A stretch of 64,000 bases of DNA, from the NCBI GenBank assembly GCA_964584895.1, contig CAZPAW010000001.1, positions 197,053 to 261,052 on the forward strand, in the 5' to 3' direction. The notes beneath the pieces were generated by a model, which was given only the letters and a program-made list of their open reading frames with translations, did no database searches and was not told the DNA's origin. Of this stretch, positions 3,657 through 53,226 are shown in pieces. Origin of the DNA: an uncultured Candidatus Saccharibacteria bacterium (GTDB taxonomy: Bacteria; Patescibacteriota; Saccharimonadia; Saccharimonadales; JAGQNJ01). Numbering within the stretch: position 1 is the stretch's first letter; every line of letters starts with the position of its first letter. A program made the translations under genes and the position numbers.

Positions 3657-3695
3657 CACCCCTGAGGTTATATAACATCAGGGGTGTTTTTTTGT
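3657..3695 (+). terminator. rho-independent terminator (CACCCCTGA...TCAGGGGTG followed by T7)
   Basis: Perfect 9-bp GC-rich stem followed by TTTTTTT, directly after the 3438..3635 ORF. Confidence 0.8.
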
Positions 3696-3711: not shown

Positions 3712-4470
3712 ATGGCGGATGTGATATTAAAAGTTACTAACCTACGAAAAAAATACGGCCGAAAATCGGTTGTTAAGGGAATTAGTTTTGAAGTAAATAA
3801 AGGTGAGGTTTTTGGCATATTAGGTCCTAACGGAGCCGGCAAGACCACAACGCTTGAAATGATAGAATCAATGCGACCAATTGATGGCGGCACAGCTATT
3901 TTAGATGGGATTAATGTTGCCGAGTCGCCACAAAAAGTAAAAGACATTATTGGCGTACAATTACAGTCTTCGGCATTTTTTGATAATCTTAATCTAAGTG
4001 AGTTGTTAAAAATGTTTGCTGGTATGTATGGTCAGCGAGCACATCCTAGAAAATTACTTCAAGAAGTACAACTAAGTAATAAATCAAAATCTCAAGTCAA
4101 GGAACTGTCAGGTGGTCAACGTCAACGCTTTAGTATTGCAGCTGCTCTTGTTAATAAACCAAAGGTATTATTTCTTGATGAGCCAACAACCGGTCTCGAT
4201 CCACAAGCACGACGTAATCTATGGGAATTAGTAGAATCGATTAAAAAAAAGAATATTACCGTAATTATAACCACTCACTATATGGAGGAAGCCGAGAGAT
4301 TATGCGATCGCGTCGCGATTATGGATGATGGACGTGTTATTGCGCTAGATTCTCCTGCAAATTTAATTCAGCAATTACTAAAGAGGGGCTTTAAAAAGGC
4401 CCAAAAGGTCGAACAAGCTGATCTCGAGGATGTATTTATTGATCTTACAGGCAAGGATTTACGAGAATGA
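3712..4470 (+). CDS. ABC transporter ATP-binding protein
   Basis: Walker A 'GPNGAGKTT', signature 'LSGGQRQR', Walker B 'VLFLDEPTTGLD'. Confidence 0.9.
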   Translation: MADVILKVTNLRKKYGRKSVVKGISFEVNKGEVFGILGPNGAGKTTTLEMIESMRPIDGGTAILDGINVAESPQKVKDIIGVQLQSSAFFDNLNLSELLKMFAGMYGQRAHPRKLLQEVQLSNKSKSQVKELSGGQRQRFSIAAALVNKPKVLFLDEPTTGLDPQARRNLWELVESIKKKNITVIITTHYMEEAERLCDRVAIMDDGRVIALDSPANLIQQLLKRGFKKAQKVEQADLEDVFIDLTGKDLRE

Positions 4471-25678: not shown

Positions 25679-25754
25679 GGGGCTGTAGCTCAGGGGTTAG
25701 AGCAGTCGGCTCATAACCGATTGGTCGCAGGTTCAAATCCTGCCAGCCCCACCA
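25679..25754 (+). tRNA. tRNA with CAT anticodon, elongator-type (Met, or Ile2 if lysidine-modified); CCA encoded
   Basis: Cloverleaf read directly: acceptor GGGGCTG/CAGCCCC, D-arm GCTC-AGGGGTTA-GAGC, anticodon loop CTCATAA, T-arm GCAGG-TTCAAAT-CCTGC, then A-CCA. C11:G24 is the elongator type. Confidence 0.8.
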
Positions 25755-45595: not shown

Positions 45596-45657
45596 ATTTC
45601 AATAATAACAGAGAGACTAAAAAGACCCCAGCTTCCTAGGGTCATAGTGCTTATGCT

Positions 45658-45732
45658 TGGTTGCGGGACCAGGACTCGAACCTGGGACCTCGTGGTTATG
45701 AGCCACGCGAGCTGCCGCTGCTCCATCCCGCA
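45658..45732 (-). tRNA. tRNA-CAT with initiator-like features (candidate tRNA-fMet)
   Basis: Read on the minus strand: TGCGGGA-TG-GAGC-AGCGGCA-GCTC-G-CGTGG-CTCATAA-CCACG-AGGTC-CCAGG-TTCGAGT-CCTGG-TCCCGCA-A-CCA. Features: weak U1-A72 pair, A11:U24, two G:C pairs closing the anticodon loop. Confidence 0.75.
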
Positions 45733-45831: not shown

Positions 45832-45860
45832 TTGACAAATTAAAGTTCTTATGTATAATG
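45832..45860 (+). promoter_or_regulatory. near-consensus sigma70 promoter TTGACA, 17-nt spacer, TATAAT in a gene-poor region
   Basis: Exact hexamers read directly, followed by an A-rich leader and an AAGGAG RBS. Confidence 0.6.
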
Positions 45861-45931
45861 TTAAGTACAGTTTTAAATTAAAACAAAACAAAAAATTAAC
45901 AAACTAACAAAACAAAAAAGGAGTCCGAAAA

Positions 45932-46009
45932 ATGGGCGATCTTACTTATGAAGTTGTCGAGACAGACAACGTAGCAATAAGAGAAGTAGACAGCATACTT
46001 TTCAGTTAA
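45932..46009 (+). CDS. candidate 25-aa small ORF (MGDLTYEVVETDNVAIREVDSILFS) behind the strong promoter and a consensus RBS
   Basis: AAGGAG 9 nt upstream of the ATG. Acidic peptide. No homology assessable by eye. Confidence 0.35.
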   Translation: MGDLTYEVVETDNVAIREVDSILFS

Positions 46010-46088
46010 TTCATCAAGAGCTAAAGCTCTAAAAAACGATGGGCTAGCCGGTGCAAAAAATGTACCGGCTATTTTTGGTAACAACAAT

Positions 46089-46181: not shown

Positions 46182-46281
46182 ATATCTTTTCTATTGCGAG
46201 CTAAAGCTCGCGCTTTAAATACTTTTTACCTGAAAAAGTAGTAGCAAAAGCAGGCAAGCGGCTGAAAGAACAAGATGTTAA

Positions 46282-46389
46282 TTTTAGTAATATGTATCGT
46301 GCCTGCGGAACGTAAGCGATCCGATTCATTAATTCTAGAGTAAGGAATCGGATTAGTCCTCGGCATTGACCCGATACATATTACTAAAA
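46282..46389. repeat. nested perfect inverted repeats: outer 18 bp (TTTTAGTAATATGTATCG / CGATACATATTACTAAAA) and inner 9 bp (ATCCGATTC / GAATCGGAT) with symmetric 18-nt internal loops
   Basis: Read directly. The 108-nt element could form a long stem-loop in RNA or a cruciform in DNA. Confidence 0.6.
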
Positions 46390-46514
46390 TTAAATCTGTT
46401 TTTCAGAGCTTGGAAACTAAGCGATAATTTACTCATCAATTTCTGGTCATTGTCCAGAGAATAATAATGAAACATTACGTTGATTTGGGTATCTTTTAAC
46501 AGACTAGAATTAGC

Positions 46515-46949
46515 CTAATCAGTTTTGAGCCAGTTTTCGAGTGATTTTAAGTCTGGAAAAATCTCATCAAAAATACCATACAGAGTTTCTGTCTTTTCTG
46601 GTATGCCCAATGCATAACATTTTTTGCCCATGCCATATGCTGCACCAGCCTCTATGTGTCCAGAGATCCCCGCTGGTAAAACTAATAGGAAGTTATCGCT
46701 ATCTCGTTGAGCCTGCATATCATTTTCGAAAATATGTCTTATGAAATCATCGTCTTTGGGTAGCGATTCGAGCGTTTGCATAATCGACTCAATGCTAGCA
46801 TCTTGTTTGAACTCAACTTTCGATCCCTTATACAAGTTCTCAATGAAACAATAGGCAACTTTGTTGTGAGCTCTTACAGAATCAAGGGCTTTTTTTACTT
46901 CTGGATAATTTCGCCAACGTCCAACTATGAAGAAATCGTACTTTGCCAT
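46515..46949 (-). CDS. nucleoside 2-deoxyribosyltransferase-like protein (Rossmann-like)
   Basis: 'FLLVLPAGISGHIEAGAAYGMGKKCYAL' resembles the 'DsGTafEiGyAyalGKPv' motif of PF05014-type proteins. Confidence 0.55.
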   Translation of the reverse strand: MAKYDFFIVGRWRNYPEVKKALDSVRAHNKVAYCFIENLYKGSKVEFKQDASIESIMQTLESLPKDDDFIRHIFENDMQAQRDSDNFLLVLPAGISGHIEAGAAYGMGKKCYALGIPEKTETLYGIFDEIFPDLKSLENWLKTD

Positions 46950-47318
46950 GGAATAATTATATCAATTTAGTTGATGAAGGCTCTAACTTACTAATTGGTC
47001 AACCTAACTCATATGGATATGGAATGACTTTGTTGGGTATCTGACTGATCCTAAACAGATGTTGTGAAAAAAAGGTGACCTTGGACGCGAGGACTGTTTG
47101 AGATATGAATTTGCTTAGTAGCATATTCATATAGAGTTCCACAGAGAGCTAACTTTATACTAACAGATATATAAAGACTGTGTAGTAAGTCCGAGCTTTT
47201 GGTTTACTTTGGGCGGTTAAAAGTAATAAATTAATAGTTTTTAATAAAATAGATATGCCTACATTGAATCTAGTAACTTGGGTTGAGATGTGGTATATTT
47301 ACCCCTGTCGGTAACTAT

Positions 47319-47395
47319 GTCGGTGTAGCTCAGTTGGTTAGAGCGCAGGACTCATAAGCCTGAGGTCGTTGGTTCAATTCCAACCACCGACACCA
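47319..47395 (+). tRNA. tRNA with CAT anticodon, elongator-type (Met or Ile2-lysidine); CCA encoded
   Basis: GTCGGTG-TA-GCTC-AGTTGGTTA-GAGC-G-CAGGA-CTCATAA-GCCTG-AGGTC-GTTGG-TTCAATT-CCAAC-CACCGAC-A-CCA. C11:G24. A31/G39 mismatch at the loop-proximal pair. Confidence 0.75.
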
Positions 47396-47445
47396 AAAAA
47401 AGTTTTGCAAAGATTAAAATGCTGATGGTATAATAAAGTCTCAGT

Positions 47446-48105
47446 ATGGCAACAACCCAAAGTCCAGCTGAAACAGGTTCATCTCCGCAAGGAGATGTTT
47501 TTTTATCACAAGATTATTTAGGCCAAATACCTCCTCAAGTTCATGAAAATAGATTTTCACGACAGTTGCACGACTTAACTACTTTGGATATTGTGCGCAG
47601 TGACGTCGCGGTTGCCACGCAGACTCTCAACGGCGAAAGAACATTTAGATATGACGCATGTGGTGTTTTGATCTCGGGCTTGAAAGAAATTACAGATACA
47701 ATTTTTAGAGCAAGAGAAGGTGTGCTCGAGATTGAGGCAAAAGGCCTATTCAGGTTGGGCCGAGGGTTGTCTAGACTTTTCGAGGAATATGGTGTGGGTG
47801 AAAATGATGATGATGACAGCTTCCTTAGAATGCCGGTTGAGCGTATTACTGATGTGAGGCCTGGTTATGGCACAGGTCGAGTCCTAAATAGGGATATGAT
47901 TGTATATAATCCGTTTTTGGATTTGAGAATACAATTTGAAGATGATCTTGCTCCAGCAAATGTTGGGGTTTCTCCTCATCTCAAACATCTTTTTAGAGAA
48001 GACAGGCCAGGGGAATTTCATAGGATAGGATTAGCAGGTATTACAAGATTGAGTTTGCTTGAGCCAATGGAGTCGTTGAGAGCAAGGACTAATCCTGTTA
48101 AATGA
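47446..48105 (+). CDS. hypothetical protein, first gene of a coupled two-gene cassette
   Basis: 219-aa ORF, no recognisable motif. Stop overlaps the next start (ATGA). Confidence 0.5.
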   Translation: MATTQSPAETGSSPQGDVFLSQDYLGQIPPQVHENRFSRQLHDLTTLDIVRSDVAVATQTLNGERTFRYDACGVLISGLKEITDTIFRAREGVLEIEAKGLFRLGRGLSRLFEEYGVGENDDDDSFLRMPVERITDVRPGYGTGRVLNRDMIVYNPFLDLRIQFEDDLAPANVGVSPHLKHLFREDRPGEFHRIGLAGITRLSLLEPMESLRARTNPVK

Positions 48106-48680
48106 CCGAGTCCAAATCTGTCGATACACCGCCCAATGAAGGCGGTATTTTTTTGTCAAAAGAAGAATATGAAAAAGTAAGCGAGCTAGTCGCCGAATTC
48201 CCAAGAATAGCAGACAAAGGATTACAAAAACGGCAGGCCTATCCTTTTATTAATTTGTATCTGATCATGTGGATTCTGTCGCGAGAAAAACGATCTAATA
48301 ATCAAGATGGCTTTGATCGTGAGCCCTATCGTGATTTTTGTAGGAATTGGATGCAACAAATGAGAGAAGAGGCCCTATATCCAATCGATGTTTCTGGAAT
48401 CGTAAGAAGAGTGTCATCCATCTTCCAAAACAGACTACTATACTCCAGTAGCGTCGATGACGCCCCAGTAATTTTTGATCTTGCGGGCAAAGAGTACATA
48501 GCCTTATGCCACCCATCGCTTAAATCATTGTATCTATGCACAGAGGAAGAAGGTACTGGTAGAATCGTTAGTTTTACGGAAGCACAGTTGTCGGCTGAGC
48601 ATGATCGATCAGCACGCTACGCTAGTACCGAGGACCACATAGCTTTTTTGAGCGCCTGTGTTTTATCTGTTGAATTCTGA
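48102..48680 (+). CDS. hypothetical protein, second gene of the cassette
   Basis: 192-aa ORF, no recognisable motif. Translationally coupled to 47446..48105. Confidence 0.5.
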   Translation: MTESKSVDTPPNEGGIFLSKEEYEKVSELVAEFPRIADKGLQKRQAYPFINLYLIMWILSREKRSNNQDGFDREPYRDFCRNWMQQMREEALYPIDVSGIVRRVSSIFQNRLLYSSSVDDAPVIFDLAGKEYIALCHPSLKSLYLCTEEEGTGRIVSFTEAQLSAEHDRSARYASTEDHIAFLSACVLSVEF

Positions 48681-48693
48681 TACCATATCGATA

Positions 48694-49566
48694 ATGAAAA
48701 TCGTAATTAAACCAGGAAAATATATAGTTGCGGTTTCTGGTGGCGTGGATTCAATTGTTTTACTTGATTTGTTATCAAAAAACAAAGATCTTGAATTGGT
48801 AGTTGCACATTTTGATCATGGTATAAGACGAGAGTCTGAAAAAGACAAAAATTTTGTCGTTGAATTAGCTGGCCGATATGGGCTACCAATCCGAATAGGA
48901 GAGGGGAGGCTTGGTAGCGGTACTAGTGAAGAGCGTGCGCGGAGGACTAGATATGACTTCTTGCATGAAGTTATGAAAAGTGAAGGCGCCGATGCAATCA
49001 TAACTGCGCATCATCAAGATGACTTGGTTGAAACCGTAATATTCAATATCTTGCGCGGGACAGGTCGAAAAGGCATCACTTCGTTATCGAATAATAAAAA
49101 TATCCAAAGACCACTACTTGGTATAAGTAAAAATGAAATTATTAAATACGCCAAAACAAACAATCTTGCTTGGGTTGTAGATTCTACTAATTACGATACG
49201 CAATATACACGTAACTGGATCAGACATATTCTAATTCCAAAAATGGATGACGAGAAAAAAGATCAAATTTTAATGCTATATCAATCACATCAACCAATTA
49301 ATTCCGAGGTGGATGAGGCAATCAAGCGAATTATTGATTTTGAACAAGATCTAAAAAAATCAACCCTGTTGAACTTACCATATTCAATCAGTTGTGAATT
49401 GGTTGCGGGTTGGCTACGAGATAAGGGTTTGGCAGAATTTGACAAAAAAACAATAGACAGAATAGTGCGAGGCGTAAAGACTTTGCCGACAGGAAAAACT
49501 ATAGATATATATGATAATAATCAAGTTATTATTGGCGATAAAAAACTAGAAATAGTAAAAAGGTAA
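48694..49566 (+). CDS. tilS: tRNA(Ile)-lysidine synthetase
   Basis: PP-loop 'VAVSGGVDSIVLLDLL', 'DHGIRRESEKD'. Short TilS form (~290 aa). Start set at the MKIVIKPG Met; the ORF is open from 48658. Confidence 0.8.
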   Translation: MKIVIKPGKYIVAVSGGVDSIVLLDLLSKNKDLELVVAHFDHGIRRESEKDKNFVVELAGRYGLPIRIGEGRLGSGTSEERARRTRYDFLHEVMKSEGADAIITAHHQDDLVETVIFNILRGTGRKGITSLSNNKNIQRPLLGISKNEIIKYAKTNNLAWVVDSTNYDTQYTRNWIRHILIPKMDDEKKDQILMLYQSHQPINSEVDEAIKRIIDFEQDLKKSTLLNLPYSISCELVAGWLRDKGLAEFDKKTIDRIVRGVKTLPTGKTIDIYDNNQVIIGDKKLEIVKR

Positions 49567-49612
49567 CTCTTGCCTATAAAAATCCAAAATTATAGGTATA
49601 ATAATTGTTTGT

Positions 49613-51481
49613 ATGGATAAAAAGTTGAAACAGCGCCCAGGTGGGAACGGCTACAATGGTAAGCGCGGGCTCAAAAATCTGGGCTTTATCGTTATTATTA
49701 TTTTAATAGGGTTAATTGTTTACGCCTCTTTTAATAAACCGAGTGAATTAACTTCGGTGCCATTTAATGACGTAGTAACGAGAGCAAACAATGGCGAAAT
49801 CCAAAAAATTGAATTAACTGGCGATGAACTCGTAATTACCAAGAAAGGTGATAGTGAGCCAACTGAAGAATCAAGAAAAGAGCCAGAAACATCTCTGAGC
49901 GAACAGGGTCTTGATACAACAAAAGTCGAGCTGGTAGTAAAACCGGCTGATTCTAATGCTACCTGGACAAATATAGGCGTTTCTTTATTGCCCGTGATAA
50001 TTATTACAGGTGTTTTGTTTTTTATGCTCAAGAGTGCTCAAGGCCAAGGTAATCAGGCAATGAGCTTTGGTAAAAGTAAGGCTAGATTATATGGTAACGA
50101 AAAGGACAAAGTAACTTTTAAGAATATTGCAGGCACAGAAGAGGCAAAGCAAGATTTGTCTGAAGTTGTTGATTTTTTGAAACATCCAAAGAAATTTATT
50201 GGTGTAGGTGCTCGTATACCTCAGGGCGTGCTACTAGTGGGTCCACCTGGTACCGGTAAAACAATGCTAGCGCGGGCCGTTGCCGGCGAGGCAGGAGTGC
50301 CATTTTTTAGTATTTCTGGTTCTGAATTTGTCGAAATGTTTGTCGGAGTAGGTGCTTCGCGGGTTAGAGATTTGTTTGCCAAGGCTAAGAAGAATGCACC
50401 TTGCATAATTTTTATAGATGAAATAGATGCTGTGGGCCGAAAACGTGGTAGTGGTATGGGAGGTGGTCATGACGAGCGCGAGCAAACACTGAATCAAATC
50501 CTTGTTGAGATGGATGGTTTCGAGCAAGGTCAAAATGTTATTGTTTTGGCTGCTACTAACAGGGCGGATGTGCTTGACCCAGCGTTACTTCGTCCTGGAC
50601 GATTTGATAGGCGAGTAAAAATTGATCTACCTGATCGAAAAGCTCGAAAGGCTATACTTGAAGTACACTTTGAGAAAAAACCGCTAGACTCTCATGTTGA
50701 TCTTGATGCGCTTGCTGCAAAAACTGCAGGTTCATCTGGTGCCGATCTTGGCAATATCGTTAACGAGTCTGCGATTATTGCTGCAAGAGAAAATCGAAAA
50801 ATTATTAAGCAAGCTGATGTTACTGCGGCTTTTGAAAAAGTAGCAATTGGGCCAGAGCGAAAAAGCAAGATCATGAGCGATAAAGAAAAAGAACTTTCAG
50901 CCTATCATGAGGGCGGTCATGCTGTCGTTGGTCATGTATTGCCCGATAGCGATCCTATTCATAAAGTTACGATTATCTCTCGTGGAAATACTGGGGGCGT
51001 TACTTGGTCAATTCCGCCCGAGGACAAAAGTTATCATAGTATCGTTGAATTTAAAGATGCACTAGCTAGGATGTTAGGCGGGCGTATTGCAGAAGAACTA
51101 ATATACGGCAAAGATCATGTTACTACAGGCGCAGGTTCTGACTTACCTAGTGCTGCAGAGCTTGCACGCGATATGATTATCAATCAGGGAATGGGTAGTG
51201 GCCGACTTCGTAATCAAGTTTTTCATGTTGATGAAGGTATTATGATGGATAAGCTTATGCACGAGAGACAATATTCTGAAGATACCGCCAAATTAATTGA
51301 CGACGAAGTAGAGAACTTAATTACTGAGGCTGCTAATCGTGCCCGAGATGTTCTAAAAGCTAATAAGGCAGGCCTTGAAAAACTAAAAGACGTATTATTA
51401 GAAAAAGAAACAGTTGAATCTGAAGAAGTGCTTGAGATCCTAAAGGATAGTGTTATGCCAAAATCCGCTATGCTTTATTGA
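49613..51481 (+). CDS. ftsH: ATP-dependent zinc metalloprotease FtsH
   Basis: Walker A 'GPPGTGKT', Walker B 'IIFIDEID', SRH '[19 protein letters not shown]', zinc site 'HEGGHAV'. Confidence 0.95.
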
Positions 51482-51627
51482 TTTTTTATCGTTTCAAAAA
51501 ACAAATATACACCTTATAATAAGCGGTAAATGAATGCTTTTATGTTAAATAATTTTATGGTTGCATTTTTGACGCTTATAGATGCACAGAGGTTGATGAT
51601 TGTTGGCCTTCGTAAAGGTCAAGTGGA

Positions 51628-53226
51628 ATGAATCGGTTTTTGAAACGCGCAAGCAAGAGCATGTCAATTGGCGGTGCGGCAACTCTACTTATTTCTATCT
51701 CATTACTTGGTCAAGTATTGGGTTTTTTAAAAGTAAAGTTGATCAATGCAAACTTTCCTGCTACCGGTCTTCAGAGTACCGATGCATATTTTGCTGCATT
51801 TAAAATTCCGGATTTTTTCTTTCTTACGATTGCTGCTGGTGCTCTCGGGGTTGCTTTTATCCCATATCTATCAGACAAGTTAGAGAAAGGTGATAAAAAA
51901 GGTGCCTGGCAAATATCTTCGAGCTTACTTAACTTATTAATGATTTTCATGTTTGTTGTAGGTCTGGTTATCTTTATTTTTGCCGAGCAGTTAATAGAAC
52001 TATTGGTTGCGCCTGGGTTAACGCCAGAACAGCTAAGTAATGCTGTGATGATTATGCGTCTAGTTTGTCTGAATCCATTAATGTTTACGATATCTGGAAT
52101 ACTTATGAGTGTTCAGCAAACTATTGGACGATTTTTCTTTTTTGCTATCGCACCATTATTTTATAGTCTTGCCATCATTGCTAGTACGCTAATATTTCGC
52201 AATAATGTAGGAATTGTAGGCCTTGGAATCGGTGCGGCAGTCGGGGCTGCGCTACAGTTGATTATCGCACTTTTGGGAATGTGGGGTACAAAATTCCGAT
52301 ACGAAACTATGATTAGATGGGAGAATGCGGCTTTCCGTGGAGTGCTTAGGCAATTACCGGCACGATCAGTTGACCAGGGGATAGATGCGATTAACTCGAT
52401 TGCAGAAACGAACTTCGCTAATAGACTCGGTCCGGGCAATGTTACTTATTATGAGAATGCTTACGTCATACACACAACCCCAATATTATTACTTGGAAGC
52501 GCCATATCAACAGCAGCATATCCAAAATTAACCGAAAGATTGTCACAGGGCAGGCCGGATCTATTTAGAAAAGATTTCATTGACGTGTTACGAGCTATGA
52601 TATGGATTTTGATGCCGGTCGTTATTGTGGCATTTTTTGCTCGAGGATATTTGGCGAGAATTATTTACGCTCGACCCGATGATGCAAACCAGATTGCATT
52701 AATTCTTGGCTTTTTGTGTGTAGCGATTTTTTTCAGAACTATCTATCAAATAATCTCGAGATATTTTTACGCACATAAAGATTCCATGACACCGTTACTC
52801 GTTTCAATCTTTATTATTGCTCTCAACGTTTTCTTGGCCTGGAAACTCTCCCAACGAGATTCGTACAGCGTGGCCGGTCTAGCGATAGCACAAAGCATTG
52901 CTGCTACTACAGAGGTATTAATACTAATATTATTAATGATGATCAGAGATAAAAAAATATTTACCTTGAAATTTTTAGGCGATTTAACAAGGATAATGTC
53001 TGTTTCTGGTTTTGCAGTTGTAGCTGCATACATTGCGATTTCGTTCTTGCCTCTCAACGCTACAGACGTAGGATTTCTTACGCTTGGGACAAAGCTAGTT
53101 GCGATTAGCCTTGTTACGTTTGGCGTATATATATTCATGTCATCTTTATTTAGTATCGAAGAATCTAAAGCTGTCACTGATAGAATAAAAAAGATTGTTT
53201 TCAAGCCAGTAAAAATTGATTGGTGA
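51628..53226 (+). CDS. murJ: lipid II flippase MurJ (MviN family)
   Basis: 532 aa, 14 TM. N-terminal 'GAATLLISISLLGQVLGFLKVKLINANF...DAYFAAFKIPDFFF' is the MurJ signature. Confidence 0.85.
   Translation: MNRFLKRASKSMSIGGAATLLISISLLGQVLGFLKVKLINANFPATGLQSTDAYFAAFKIPDFFFLTIAAGALGVAFIPYLSDKLEKGDKKGAWQISSSLLNLLMIFMFVVGLVIFIFAEQLIELLVAPGLTPEQLSNAVMIMRLVCLNPLMFTISGILMSVQQTIGRFFFFAIAPLFYSLAIIASTLIFRNNVGIVGLGIGAAVGAALQLIIALLGMWGTKFRYETMIRWENAAFRGVLRQLPARSVDQGIDAINSIAETNFANRLGPGNVTYYENAYVIHTTPILLLGSAISTAAYPKLTERLSQGRPDLFRKDFIDVLRAMIWILMPVVIVAFFARGYLARIIYARPDDANQIALILGFLCVAIFFRTIYQIISRYFYAHKDSMTPLLVSIFIIALNVFLAWKLSQRDSYSVAGLAIAQSIAATTEVLILILLMMIRDKKIFTLKFLGDLTRIMSVSGFAVVAAYIAISFLPLNATDVGFLTLGTKLVAISLVTFGVYIFMSSLFSIEESKAVTDRIKKIVFKPVKIDW

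Follow-up and report, generated by a model that had tools for sequence, protein, structure and literature searches.

An orphan gene pair upstream of tilS in Saccharibacteria lies behind a conserved leader resembling a translation-coupled attenuator

The 64,000-nucleotide (nt) window analysed here, part of contig CAZPAW010000001.1 of an uncultured Candidatus Saccharibacteria bacterium, contains two open reading frames (ORFs) between a transfer RNA (tRNA) gene and tilS that encode proteins of no assigned family: ORF A (47446-48105, plus strand, 219 amino acids, aa) and ORF B (48102-48680, plus strand, 192 aa). They form an orphan cassette that is very probably not a toxin-antitoxin system, preceded by a short leader that is conserved in relatives and previously undescribed. 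The leader is probably a transcription attenuator, and the whole arrangement is best read, with a modest preference, as an orphan gene pair behind a translation-coupled attenuator of the pyrimidine type. The initial annotation had reported that A starts 50 nt past the tRNA, that A and B overlap by 4 nt (ATGA, 48102-48105) and that the pair runs into tilS; all of these positions were reproduced. Its description of an uncharacterised, tightly coupled two-gene cassette was likewise borne out, and the cassette proved to be replaceable, having been exchanged for another gene in one relative.

In order, the leader comprises a −35-like box, 17 to 18 nt, a TAtAaT hexamer, 6 nt, the sequence YYAGU-AUG (Y, pyrimidine), a hairpin of 5 to 8 bp (P1), a spacer of 7 to 41 nt, a G+C-rich hairpin (P2) and a U-run. 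The 5′ arm of P1 starts at the first Y and takes in the AUG. In the window, a sigma-70-like promoter (47405-47434, plus strand) combines TTGCAA, an 18-nt spacer and a TG-extended TATAAT, with 10 of 12 consensus matches, and its −10 box ends 6 nt ahead of the YYAG start region. Judged from this spacing, transcription would start at the two pyrimidines (Y1/Y2, 47441/47442) or at the A or G that follows (47443/47444). P1 (47441-47471, plus strand) would be the 5′-terminal hairpin of such a transcript: UCAGU (47441-47445) pairs with GCUGA (47467-47471), and the AUG at 47446 stands at the top of the 5′ arm. Its predicted stability is −6.2 kcal/mol in full and falls to −2.9 or −2.0 kcal/mol for a transcript beginning at A3 or G4. 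P2 (47480-47504, plus strand) is a terminator-like hairpin inside ORF A, at codons 12 to 20, formed by CAUCUCC-GCAA-GGAGAUG (47480-47497) and followed by U7 (47498-47504). A second terminator-like hairpin (48128-48154, plus strand) lies inside ORF B at codons 9 to 18 and consists of ACCGCC-CAAUGAA-GGCGGU (48128-48146), an A and U7 (48148-48154). This hairpin B starts 22 nt past the ORF A stop and is without a promoter or P1 of its own.

Both sites have the hairpin and adjacent U-tract on the sense strand that characterize intrinsic terminators, both lie between a promoter and downstream genes (hairpin B with no promoter of its own), and both are structurally conserved. P2 of A has a predicted folding energy of −10.8 kcal/mol (z score, −5.2) and hairpin B one of −9.9 kcal/mol (z score, −3.1). 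Under a strict definition (a perfect stem of ≥5 bp with ≥4 G-C pairs, a loop of 3 to 8 nt and then ≥6 T), these two hairpins are the sole terminator-like sites on either strand of the window. The plus and minus strands carry 71 and 107 runs of six or more T, respectively, and the minus strand has no strict site at all. By the same definition and over the same 64 kb, this genome has very few canonical intrinsic terminators. Across 81 loci searched on both strands (932 kb), 51 strict sites were found, mostly intergenic, and only 2 fell within the approximately 486 kb of downstream tilS-ftsH-murJ coding sequence.

Two matches of the terminator scan fall exactly on an N-terminal block common to the two proteins, SPxGDVFLS in A and PPxEGGIFLS in B. 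The initial annotation could place no motif in either protein. That statement holds at the level of protein families, where library searches were empty, and it missed both this shared block and the RNA-level feature behind it. A signal acting in the protein, such as one for targeting, degradation or interaction, would fit the invariance of the block's amino acids in all orthologues of both proteins. The nucleotides tell a different story: over the hairpins, 10 consecutive codons in A and 6 in B are identical among three lineages despite saturated synonymous divergence (dS), and nucleotide identity is 23/24 for the hairpin of A and 22/24 for that of B, compared with a mean of 13/24, the differences lying in loops only. 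In A orthologues the P2 stem is unchanged and the loop varies from GCAA to GGAA; in the unrelated gene that replaces the pair in locus L011, the stem has changed in a compensatory manner (CAUCCC/GGGAUG, followed by U7). Because synonymous sites are frozen and variation is confined to loops, the constraint appears to act on RNA, and the N-terminal "motif" of A and B is, on this evidence, an RNA-level feature. Moreover, the encoded peptide varies by family (GDVFLS, GGIFLS, SRFFVA, GGLFLL) while the hairpin and U-run stay constant, and the element also occurs with leader ORFs that stop ahead of the hairpin. A protein-level signal is therefore hardly credible. The T7 tracts, which read U UUU UUA and U UUU UUG in frame, were also considered as −1 frameshift sites and rejected: the −1 frame stops within about 7 to 11 codons, and the hairpin lies upstream of the tract rather than downstream.

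The same leader arrangement was found ahead of tilS in distant Saccharibacteria (TilS identity of about 45%), joined to unrelated protein families or to short free-standing ORFs. The full leader descriptor identified 12 instances in tilS-anchored loci, compared with 0.01 in shuffled sequences, and all 12 precede tilS and share its strand. These loci fall in a single subclade of the TilS plus FtsH tree, comprising 12 of the approximately 32 taxa there and none of the approximately 41 others. A scan of metagenomes by sequence signature alone, not anchored on tilS, added at least 13 structurally complete instances, so the total is at least 25; the counts below refer to 25 instances, namely the 12 tilS-anchored ones and 13 among the matches listed in the metagenome scan. 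TAtAaT, 6 nt and Y-Y-A-G are present in all 25 instances listed, a pattern that was partly imposed by the search and had first been seen, unimposed, in seven loci.

P1 is associated with the terminator: it accompanies YYAGTATG sites in 12 of 12 cases with a terminator and in 20 of 66 without one (Fisher P = 5e-6). Pair 2 of P1 is complementary in 25/25 instances listed (C-G in 14, U-A in 11, no mismatch), and pair 1, counted over the same 25, is U-A in 9, C-G in 12 and U·G in 1. By these counts, P1 covaries. They were obtained with a register-based script; MAFFT could not register the variable loops, so no covariance model was built. No matching family for the leader was found in Rfam 15, where only tRNAs passed and the best overlap was with Phe_leader at one locus, L118 (32 bits, against a gathering threshold of 55). 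A literature search on attenuators in Saccharibacteria found no paper.

The leader is mostly joined in frame to whatever gene follows it. Among the 25 instances listed, the frame opened by the leader AUG runs through P2 in 20, in 17 of them for ≥90 codons, and stops 0 to 30 nt ahead of P2 in the other 5. Two lineage-specific indels in A are both multiples of three. Since the frame is open through P2 and the indels preserve it, the N termini appear to be translated. Since ORF A starts at the leader AUG, its first approximately 20 codons make up the leader peptide and encode P2. The five free-standing leader ORFs, of 7 to 13 codons, occur in L013, L025, L113, L201 and L118.

Genes behind the leader in relatives include several of pyrimidine biosynthesis. 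pyrB follows it in L070, L013 and L206, and carAB does so in L081, L113 and L201; the carbamoyltransferases concerned score above the curated cutoff of TIGR00670 (aspartate carbamoyltransferase). In L070 the leader is fused in frame to pyrB, and in L081 to carA, which is followed by carB and tilS. L013 has a short leader ORF, a small ORF, pyrB and tilS in that order, and L025 has a short leader ORF with tilS about 250 nt downstream. carA-carB stands behind leader ORFs of 7 to 8 codons in L113 (2547-2640) and L201 (2974-3065), two loci with a GC content of 0.53 to 0.58 and a CarA that is only 40% identical to a CarA from Saccharibacteria. Because of this low identity, the leader may also occur outside the Saccharibacteria subclade, or it may have several origins. 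L118 (36-1075, minus strand) combines a short-ORF leader with a deoxycytidine monophosphate (dCMP)/cytidine deaminase (157 aa) and a P-loop kinase-like protein (187 aa). Against the NCBIfam model for anti-phage deoxycytidine triphosphate deaminase, these two proteins reach 63.6 and 33.9 bits, below the cutoff of 400, and the genes are probably ordinary members of the dCMP deaminase family. Elsewhere the leader is fused in frame to orphan proteins that run into tilS-ftsH: A itself, a family termed C here (L024, L080, L088, L106, L131, L150, L188), the family of L026 and L112, and single cases. In L150, NUDIX and Ham1 genes lie between leader and tilS. Pyrimidine genes of the kind controlled in pyrBI-type systems thus stand behind the leader in relatives; the genes behind the leader in the window are orphans and tilS-ftsH.

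The arrangement of these parts suggests a mechanism in which translation decides transcription. RNA polymerase would halt at P2, leaving an RNA of about 60 nt, except where a ribosome loaded at the 5′ AUG followed closely and prevented the hairpin from forming. P1 would decide whether a ribosome loads on this near-leaderless AUG, and the ribosome would then decide whether P2 forms. The bottom two pairs of P1 use the two pyrimidines 7 to 8 nt past the −10 box. Starts at these pyrimidines, as expected at high cytidine triphosphate (CTP) or uridine triphosphate (UTP), would let P1 fold and hide the AUG; starts at the following A or G would leave P1 unfolded and the AUG free. Hairpin B would repeat the ribosome-dependent check between A and the B-tilS-ftsH genes. 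The logic would be that of pyrC/pyrD start-site switching coupled to the translation-coupled attenuation of pyrBI and pyrE, and it is proposed because the parts match these two enterobacterial pyrimidine controls. By analogy with them, the leader may be pyrimidine responsive through start-site choice, a step about which we are slightly more doubtful than confident.

In pyrC and pyrD, high CTP shifts the start to 6 to 7 nt past the −10 box, and, with two more pyrimidines at its 5′ end, the transcript folds into a 5′ hairpin that prevents initiation of translation (PMC6524683). The likeness to the E. coli and Salmonella genes lies in the two pyrimidines about 7 nt past the −10 box, followed by purines, and in the way Y1 and Y2 complete a 5′-terminal hairpin masking the translation start, with the AUG within P1. 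The enterobacterial hairpin differs in that it hides the Shine-Dalgarno sequence and affects translational output only, whereas here it would hide a 5′-terminal AUG and the output would pass to a terminator. The pyrBI attenuator lies inside its own leader ORF, and terminators within the first approximately 100 bp of an ORF escape suppression by ribosomes, while those a few nucleotides past a stop codon are suppressed (PMC4824070). The leader resembles E. coli pyrBI and rph-pyrE in placing an intrinsic terminator inside or just past a translated leader ORF, in the first approximately 100 to 135 nt, in the proposed blocking of the hairpin by a closely trailing ribosome, and in targets that include pyrB and, in relatives, carAB. 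It differs from pyrBI in that the leader mostly continues in frame into a full-length protein instead of encoding a separate peptide, in that the mRNA is apparently near leaderless, and in that the host is a saccharibacterium of the candidate phyla radiation (CPR) whose window genes are orphans and not pyr genes. The position of hairpin B, 22 nt past the A stop, resembles the layout of rph-pyrE. The Bacillus pyr operon has tandem PyrR-dependent attenuators ahead of successive genes, and the successive hairpins ahead of A and of B recall this; however, Rfam gave no match to a PyrR-binding site, and neither an antiterminator/anti-antiterminator architecture nor a pyrR-like gene was seen.

The hairpins could instead be ordinary intrinsic terminators of the genes upstream (the tRNA and gene A) that overlap the next ORF through genome compactness and regulate nothing. 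The first lies 85 nt past the tRNA and the second just past the A stop, and terminators overlapping their neighbours are known (PMC4824070). Such a role explains neither the covariation in P1 nor the constant register of −10 box, 6 nt and YYAGUAUG. A conserved promoter stands between the tRNA and the first hairpin; L038, L070 and L088 carry the element although they lack the tRNA or have an upstream neighbour on the other strand; and in L013 and L025 the stop codon of a free-standing leader ORF abuts the hairpin. For the leader, plain termination is accordingly unlikely. For hairpin B alone it is still a reasonable explanation, since the region around it has no significant fold score, P1 or promoter. 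An attenuator therefore remains the preferred reading of the leader ahead of A.

The two genes behind the leader in the window appear to be translated and under purifying selection, because the ratio of nonsynonymous to synonymous substitution rates (dN/dS) is 0.26 to 0.29 for A and 0.24 for B at unsaturated dS (0.34 to 0.39), and 0.22 for a variant of 97% identity. Both ORFs are intact in three or four diverged lineages and by these measures are real genes. They evolve much faster than their neighbours, as judged from identities between the window and L010 of 54% for A and 50% for B, compared with 70% for TilS, 90% for MurJ and 94% for FtsH. The order tRNA(CAT)-A-B-tilS-ftsH-murJ is kept in every contig with A or B, and the 4-nt overlap is also kept, L010 and L091 included. 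Among 80 species-level tilS-anchored loci of Saccharibacteria, the pair is present in L010 only. L010 and L011 are sisters (FtsH identity, 97.6%; MurJ, 98.5%) with the window as outgroup, and the pair was therefore ancestral to a small clade and then replaced in L011. In that locus, 47453-48720 is exchanged for a single unrelated gene of 213 aa: homology at the DNA level extends over the tRNA and intergenic promoter as far as 47452, is lost, and returns within tilS at 48721, so that tRNA, promoter and tilS are still homologous. By descent, then, the A-B pair is vertically inherited, and comparison of loci indicates that, in one Saccharibacteria subclade, it fills the first-gene position of the tilS-ftsH cluster, a slot whose content can be replaced. 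As to whether the pair is accessory or core, the truth lies between: it is semi-core, found at the same tRNA-tilS position in 3 of 4 related lineages.

The initial annotation had taken the layout to be typical of toxin-antitoxin or small defence modules. What speaks for a type II toxin-antitoxin pair or a two-gene anti-phage module is the coupling of two small overlapping genes without assigned function beside a tRNA, in a replaceable slot, and a wider region that appears to serve some Saccharibacteria as an integration hotspot (att-like scars of the initiator tRNA-fMet in L011; serine recombinase-like ORFs in L058, L059 and L079). Neither protein matched PADLOC, Pfam, NCBIfam or PHROGs. The pair is limited to one clade and always to the same locus, whereas mobile defence and toxin-antitoxin families are spread widely and patchily, and it shows vertical descent and native composition without signs of horizontal spread. 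No att-like direct repeats or att sites were found around it, and the replaced segment is bounded by the A start codon, not by the 3′ end of the tRNA. Each protein is acidic and some 200 aa long, and the leader is shared with biosynthetic genes in relatives. The toxin-antitoxin and defence interpretation is thus very unlikely and was abandoned. A further claim, that the two genes are somewhat richer in GC than their neighbours, does not amount to a meaningful anomaly: ORF A (0.423) and ORF B (0.425) stand at the 74th and 78th percentiles of the 46 window ORFs (0.395 ± 0.033), their GC content at third codon positions (GC3) is ordinary, ftsH is equally GC rich, and the composition is native.

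A role for A and B as accessory factors for TilS or for the CAU tRNA, which had also been suggested, or a leader that senses AUA decoding or translation capacity and autoregulates tilS, draws on the neighbourhood. The tRNA beside ORF A (47319-47395, plus strand; anticodon CAU; Met according to ARAGORN) ends 10 nt ahead of the −35 box, and in 54 of 63 Saccharibacteria loci the same tRNA species is the closest tRNA(CAT) ahead of tilS, lying on the opposite strand to tilS in 45 and on the same strand in 9. Most leader instances are upstream of tilS, an AUA codon stands just ahead of the hairpin in several leader ORFs (for example, in L025 and L010), and a leaderless AUG in a hairpin would be inherently responsive to initiation capacity. 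On the other side, the contents of the tRNA-tilS slot are unrelated across lineages (A and B, family C, pyrB or carAB, other orphan genes), and many Saccharibacteria have no gene there at all. The linkage of tRNA and tilS thus appears ancient and independent of the intervening genes. The window leader contains no AUA, whose position varies elsewhere, and the leader also heads carAB and dCMP deaminase genes with no tilS in reach. A link to TilS or the tRNA is consequently quite unlikely, and the attenuator reading is retained. Comparison with E. coli sequences was ambiguous between Ile2, the substrate of TilS, and elongator Met for this tRNA. It is one of three CAU tRNAs in the window, the others being at 25679-25754 and 45658-45732 (initiator-like).

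Proteins A and B are acidic and soluble (pI 5.3 and 5.0), with no transmembrane or hydrophobic segment, and are best regarded as cytoplasmic. Protein A has a leader peptide and hairpin-encoded block (residues 1 to 20), a variable segment (21 to 42) and a conserved core (43 to 219). Searches of Pfam, NCBIfam, PADLOC (PADLOC-DB v2) and PHROGs gave no match at an E value of ≤1 for either protein, and searches of Protein Data Bank (PDB) sequences, profile searches included, gave nothing credible for A, B or family C. A search of 5.8 billion proteins gave three relatives of A (97, 58 and 54% identity) and likewise three of B (100, 50 and 50%); those that are named come from metagenome-assembled genomes of Candidatus Saccharibacteria. 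An index-free profile search with the A alignment against 1.84 billion representatives recovered its own family and a single artefact, the 5,225-aa RTX/Ig-repeat adhesin P0007, which was rejected because its score is the sum of 17 repeats of 1 to 4 bits each. By these searches, A and B are confined to one genus-level clade of Saccharibacteria. They were also considered as distant paralogues of each other and rejected as such, hhalign aligning the 13-residue hairpin-encoded block alone (E = 0.13).

Two distant similarities concern the other families of the slot. Residues 105 to 193 of A align with the L026/L112 family over 80 columns (hhalign probability of 50%, E = 1.7e-4), the two are reciprocal best hits, and the best outside hit of either profile is the other family; the C-terminal half of A may be related to this family. 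The L011 replacement protein aligns with family C over 187 columns at a probability of 40% and may be a divergent member. No homology was found between A or B and family C, or between the L026/L112 family and family C. Given these two similarities, two orphan families, both evolving fast, seem to alternate in the slot, with B confined to the clade of the window.

The genomic context of A and B leans towards nucleotide metabolism. Saccharibacteria mostly rely on external nucleotides, and some retain most pyrimidine enzymes (PMC7786006). A role of the two proteins in nucleotide (pyrimidine) supply or housekeeping, suggested by their association with the leader and with neighbouring nucleotide-metabolism genes, is possible but rather doubtful. 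More speculatively still, the leader may be a fixed expression-and-sensing platform behind whose shared first approximately 10 to 25 codons unrelated genes are swapped in frame (A and B, family C, pyrB, carA). A and B and family C would then be alternative, nonhomologous modules for one pyrimidine- or nucleotide-related need of epibiotic bacteria, under a dual sensor in which start-site choice gates a leaderless AUG and ribosome-dependent antitermination follows. We consider this extension unlikely. If it is true, each premature stop inside a structural gene would yield a nonstop mRNA.

Several observations count against a pyrimidine-type attenuator ahead of A and B. No pyrimidine gene was found in the 64-kb window, and the pyrimidine link for A and B is therefore by association only; two of the carAB instances, L113 and L201, have no taxon assigned. 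The window spacer (47449-47479) is not U rich and has no pause region ahead of the hairpin, such as pyrBI has, the only U-tract being the terminator's own U7. The 66 nt surrounding hairpin B fold no better than shuffled sequences (z scores, −1.2 and 0.0), and this hairpin could simply be the terminator of gene A. The ORF A promoter is a consensus match only, and the promoter scan overall was not enriched (17 found, compared with 16.9 expected in shuffles). A dependence of tilS and ftsH on the leader is uncertain because the scan allows internal promoters for both. No terminator-like site was found between ORF B and tilS-ftsH. AlphaFold2 models of A and B, built on alignments of 4 and 2 sequences, were unusable (predicted local distance difference test scores of 33 and 39), and the homology of A to the L026/L112 family stands at 50% probability only. 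Transcription start, termination, read-through, ribosome dependence and the pyrimidine signal are all steps that we infer.

Downstream of the pair, tilS (48694-49566, plus strand; PF01171, E = 4e-52) most likely starts at the ATG at 48694, 13 nt past the ORF B stop, and is followed by ftsH (49613-51481, plus strand) and then murJ. Upstream of the tRNA beside ORF A, between it and the initiator tRNA, the interval 46183-47032 is a second replaceable, hypervariable slot. The window has a minus-strand ORF of 144 aa there (46515-46949), weakly similar to nucleoside deoxyribosyltransferases (Pfam E = 0.06), and in contig L006, of the same species (99.87% identity over 47033-53000), the slot holds a 279-aa S-adenosylmethionine-dependent methyltransferase gene (L006:493-1585). 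A perfect 22-nt inverted repeat lies inside this slot (46278-46299 and 46372-46393), its arms 72 nt apart.

Farther upstream, a perfect sigma-70 consensus promoter (45832-45859; TTGACA, 16 nt, TATAAT) is followed about 190 nt on by a terminator-like hairpin (46045-46071). No plus-strand ORF of >25 aa lies between the two, and 45832-46076 has no Rfam match. The stretch is conserved in L011 (88%) and L006 (93%) and is a candidate small RNA. In L011, the 3′ end of the initiator tRNA (window 45648-45678) recurs in three additional partial copies, at 2073-2103, 3660-3690 and 3859-3880, which resemble att scars, and L058, L059 and L079 have ORFs of 516 to 524 aa beside the tRNA upstream of tilS whose N termini look, by eye, like those of serine recombinases. 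The tRNA region upstream of tilS thus appears to be an integration hotspot in Saccharibacteria.

These results remove the A-B pair from the list of candidate toxin-antitoxin or defence systems and present its genes as lineage-specific cargo under regulation, with nucleotide metabolism as the place to look for their function. They also carry a warning for the annotation of orphan proteins, in which conserved N-terminal "peptide motifs" can arise from RNA structure as a by-product. How Saccharibacteria and other CPR bacteria regulate their genes is almost uncharted. The leader, unusual in its in-frame fusion to full-length genes, would be a compact, protein-free regulator that apparently merges two classic enterobacterial pyrimidine controls, and its template of approximately 65 nt would offer a handle on how organisms without nucleotide synthesis of their own sense nucleotide supply.

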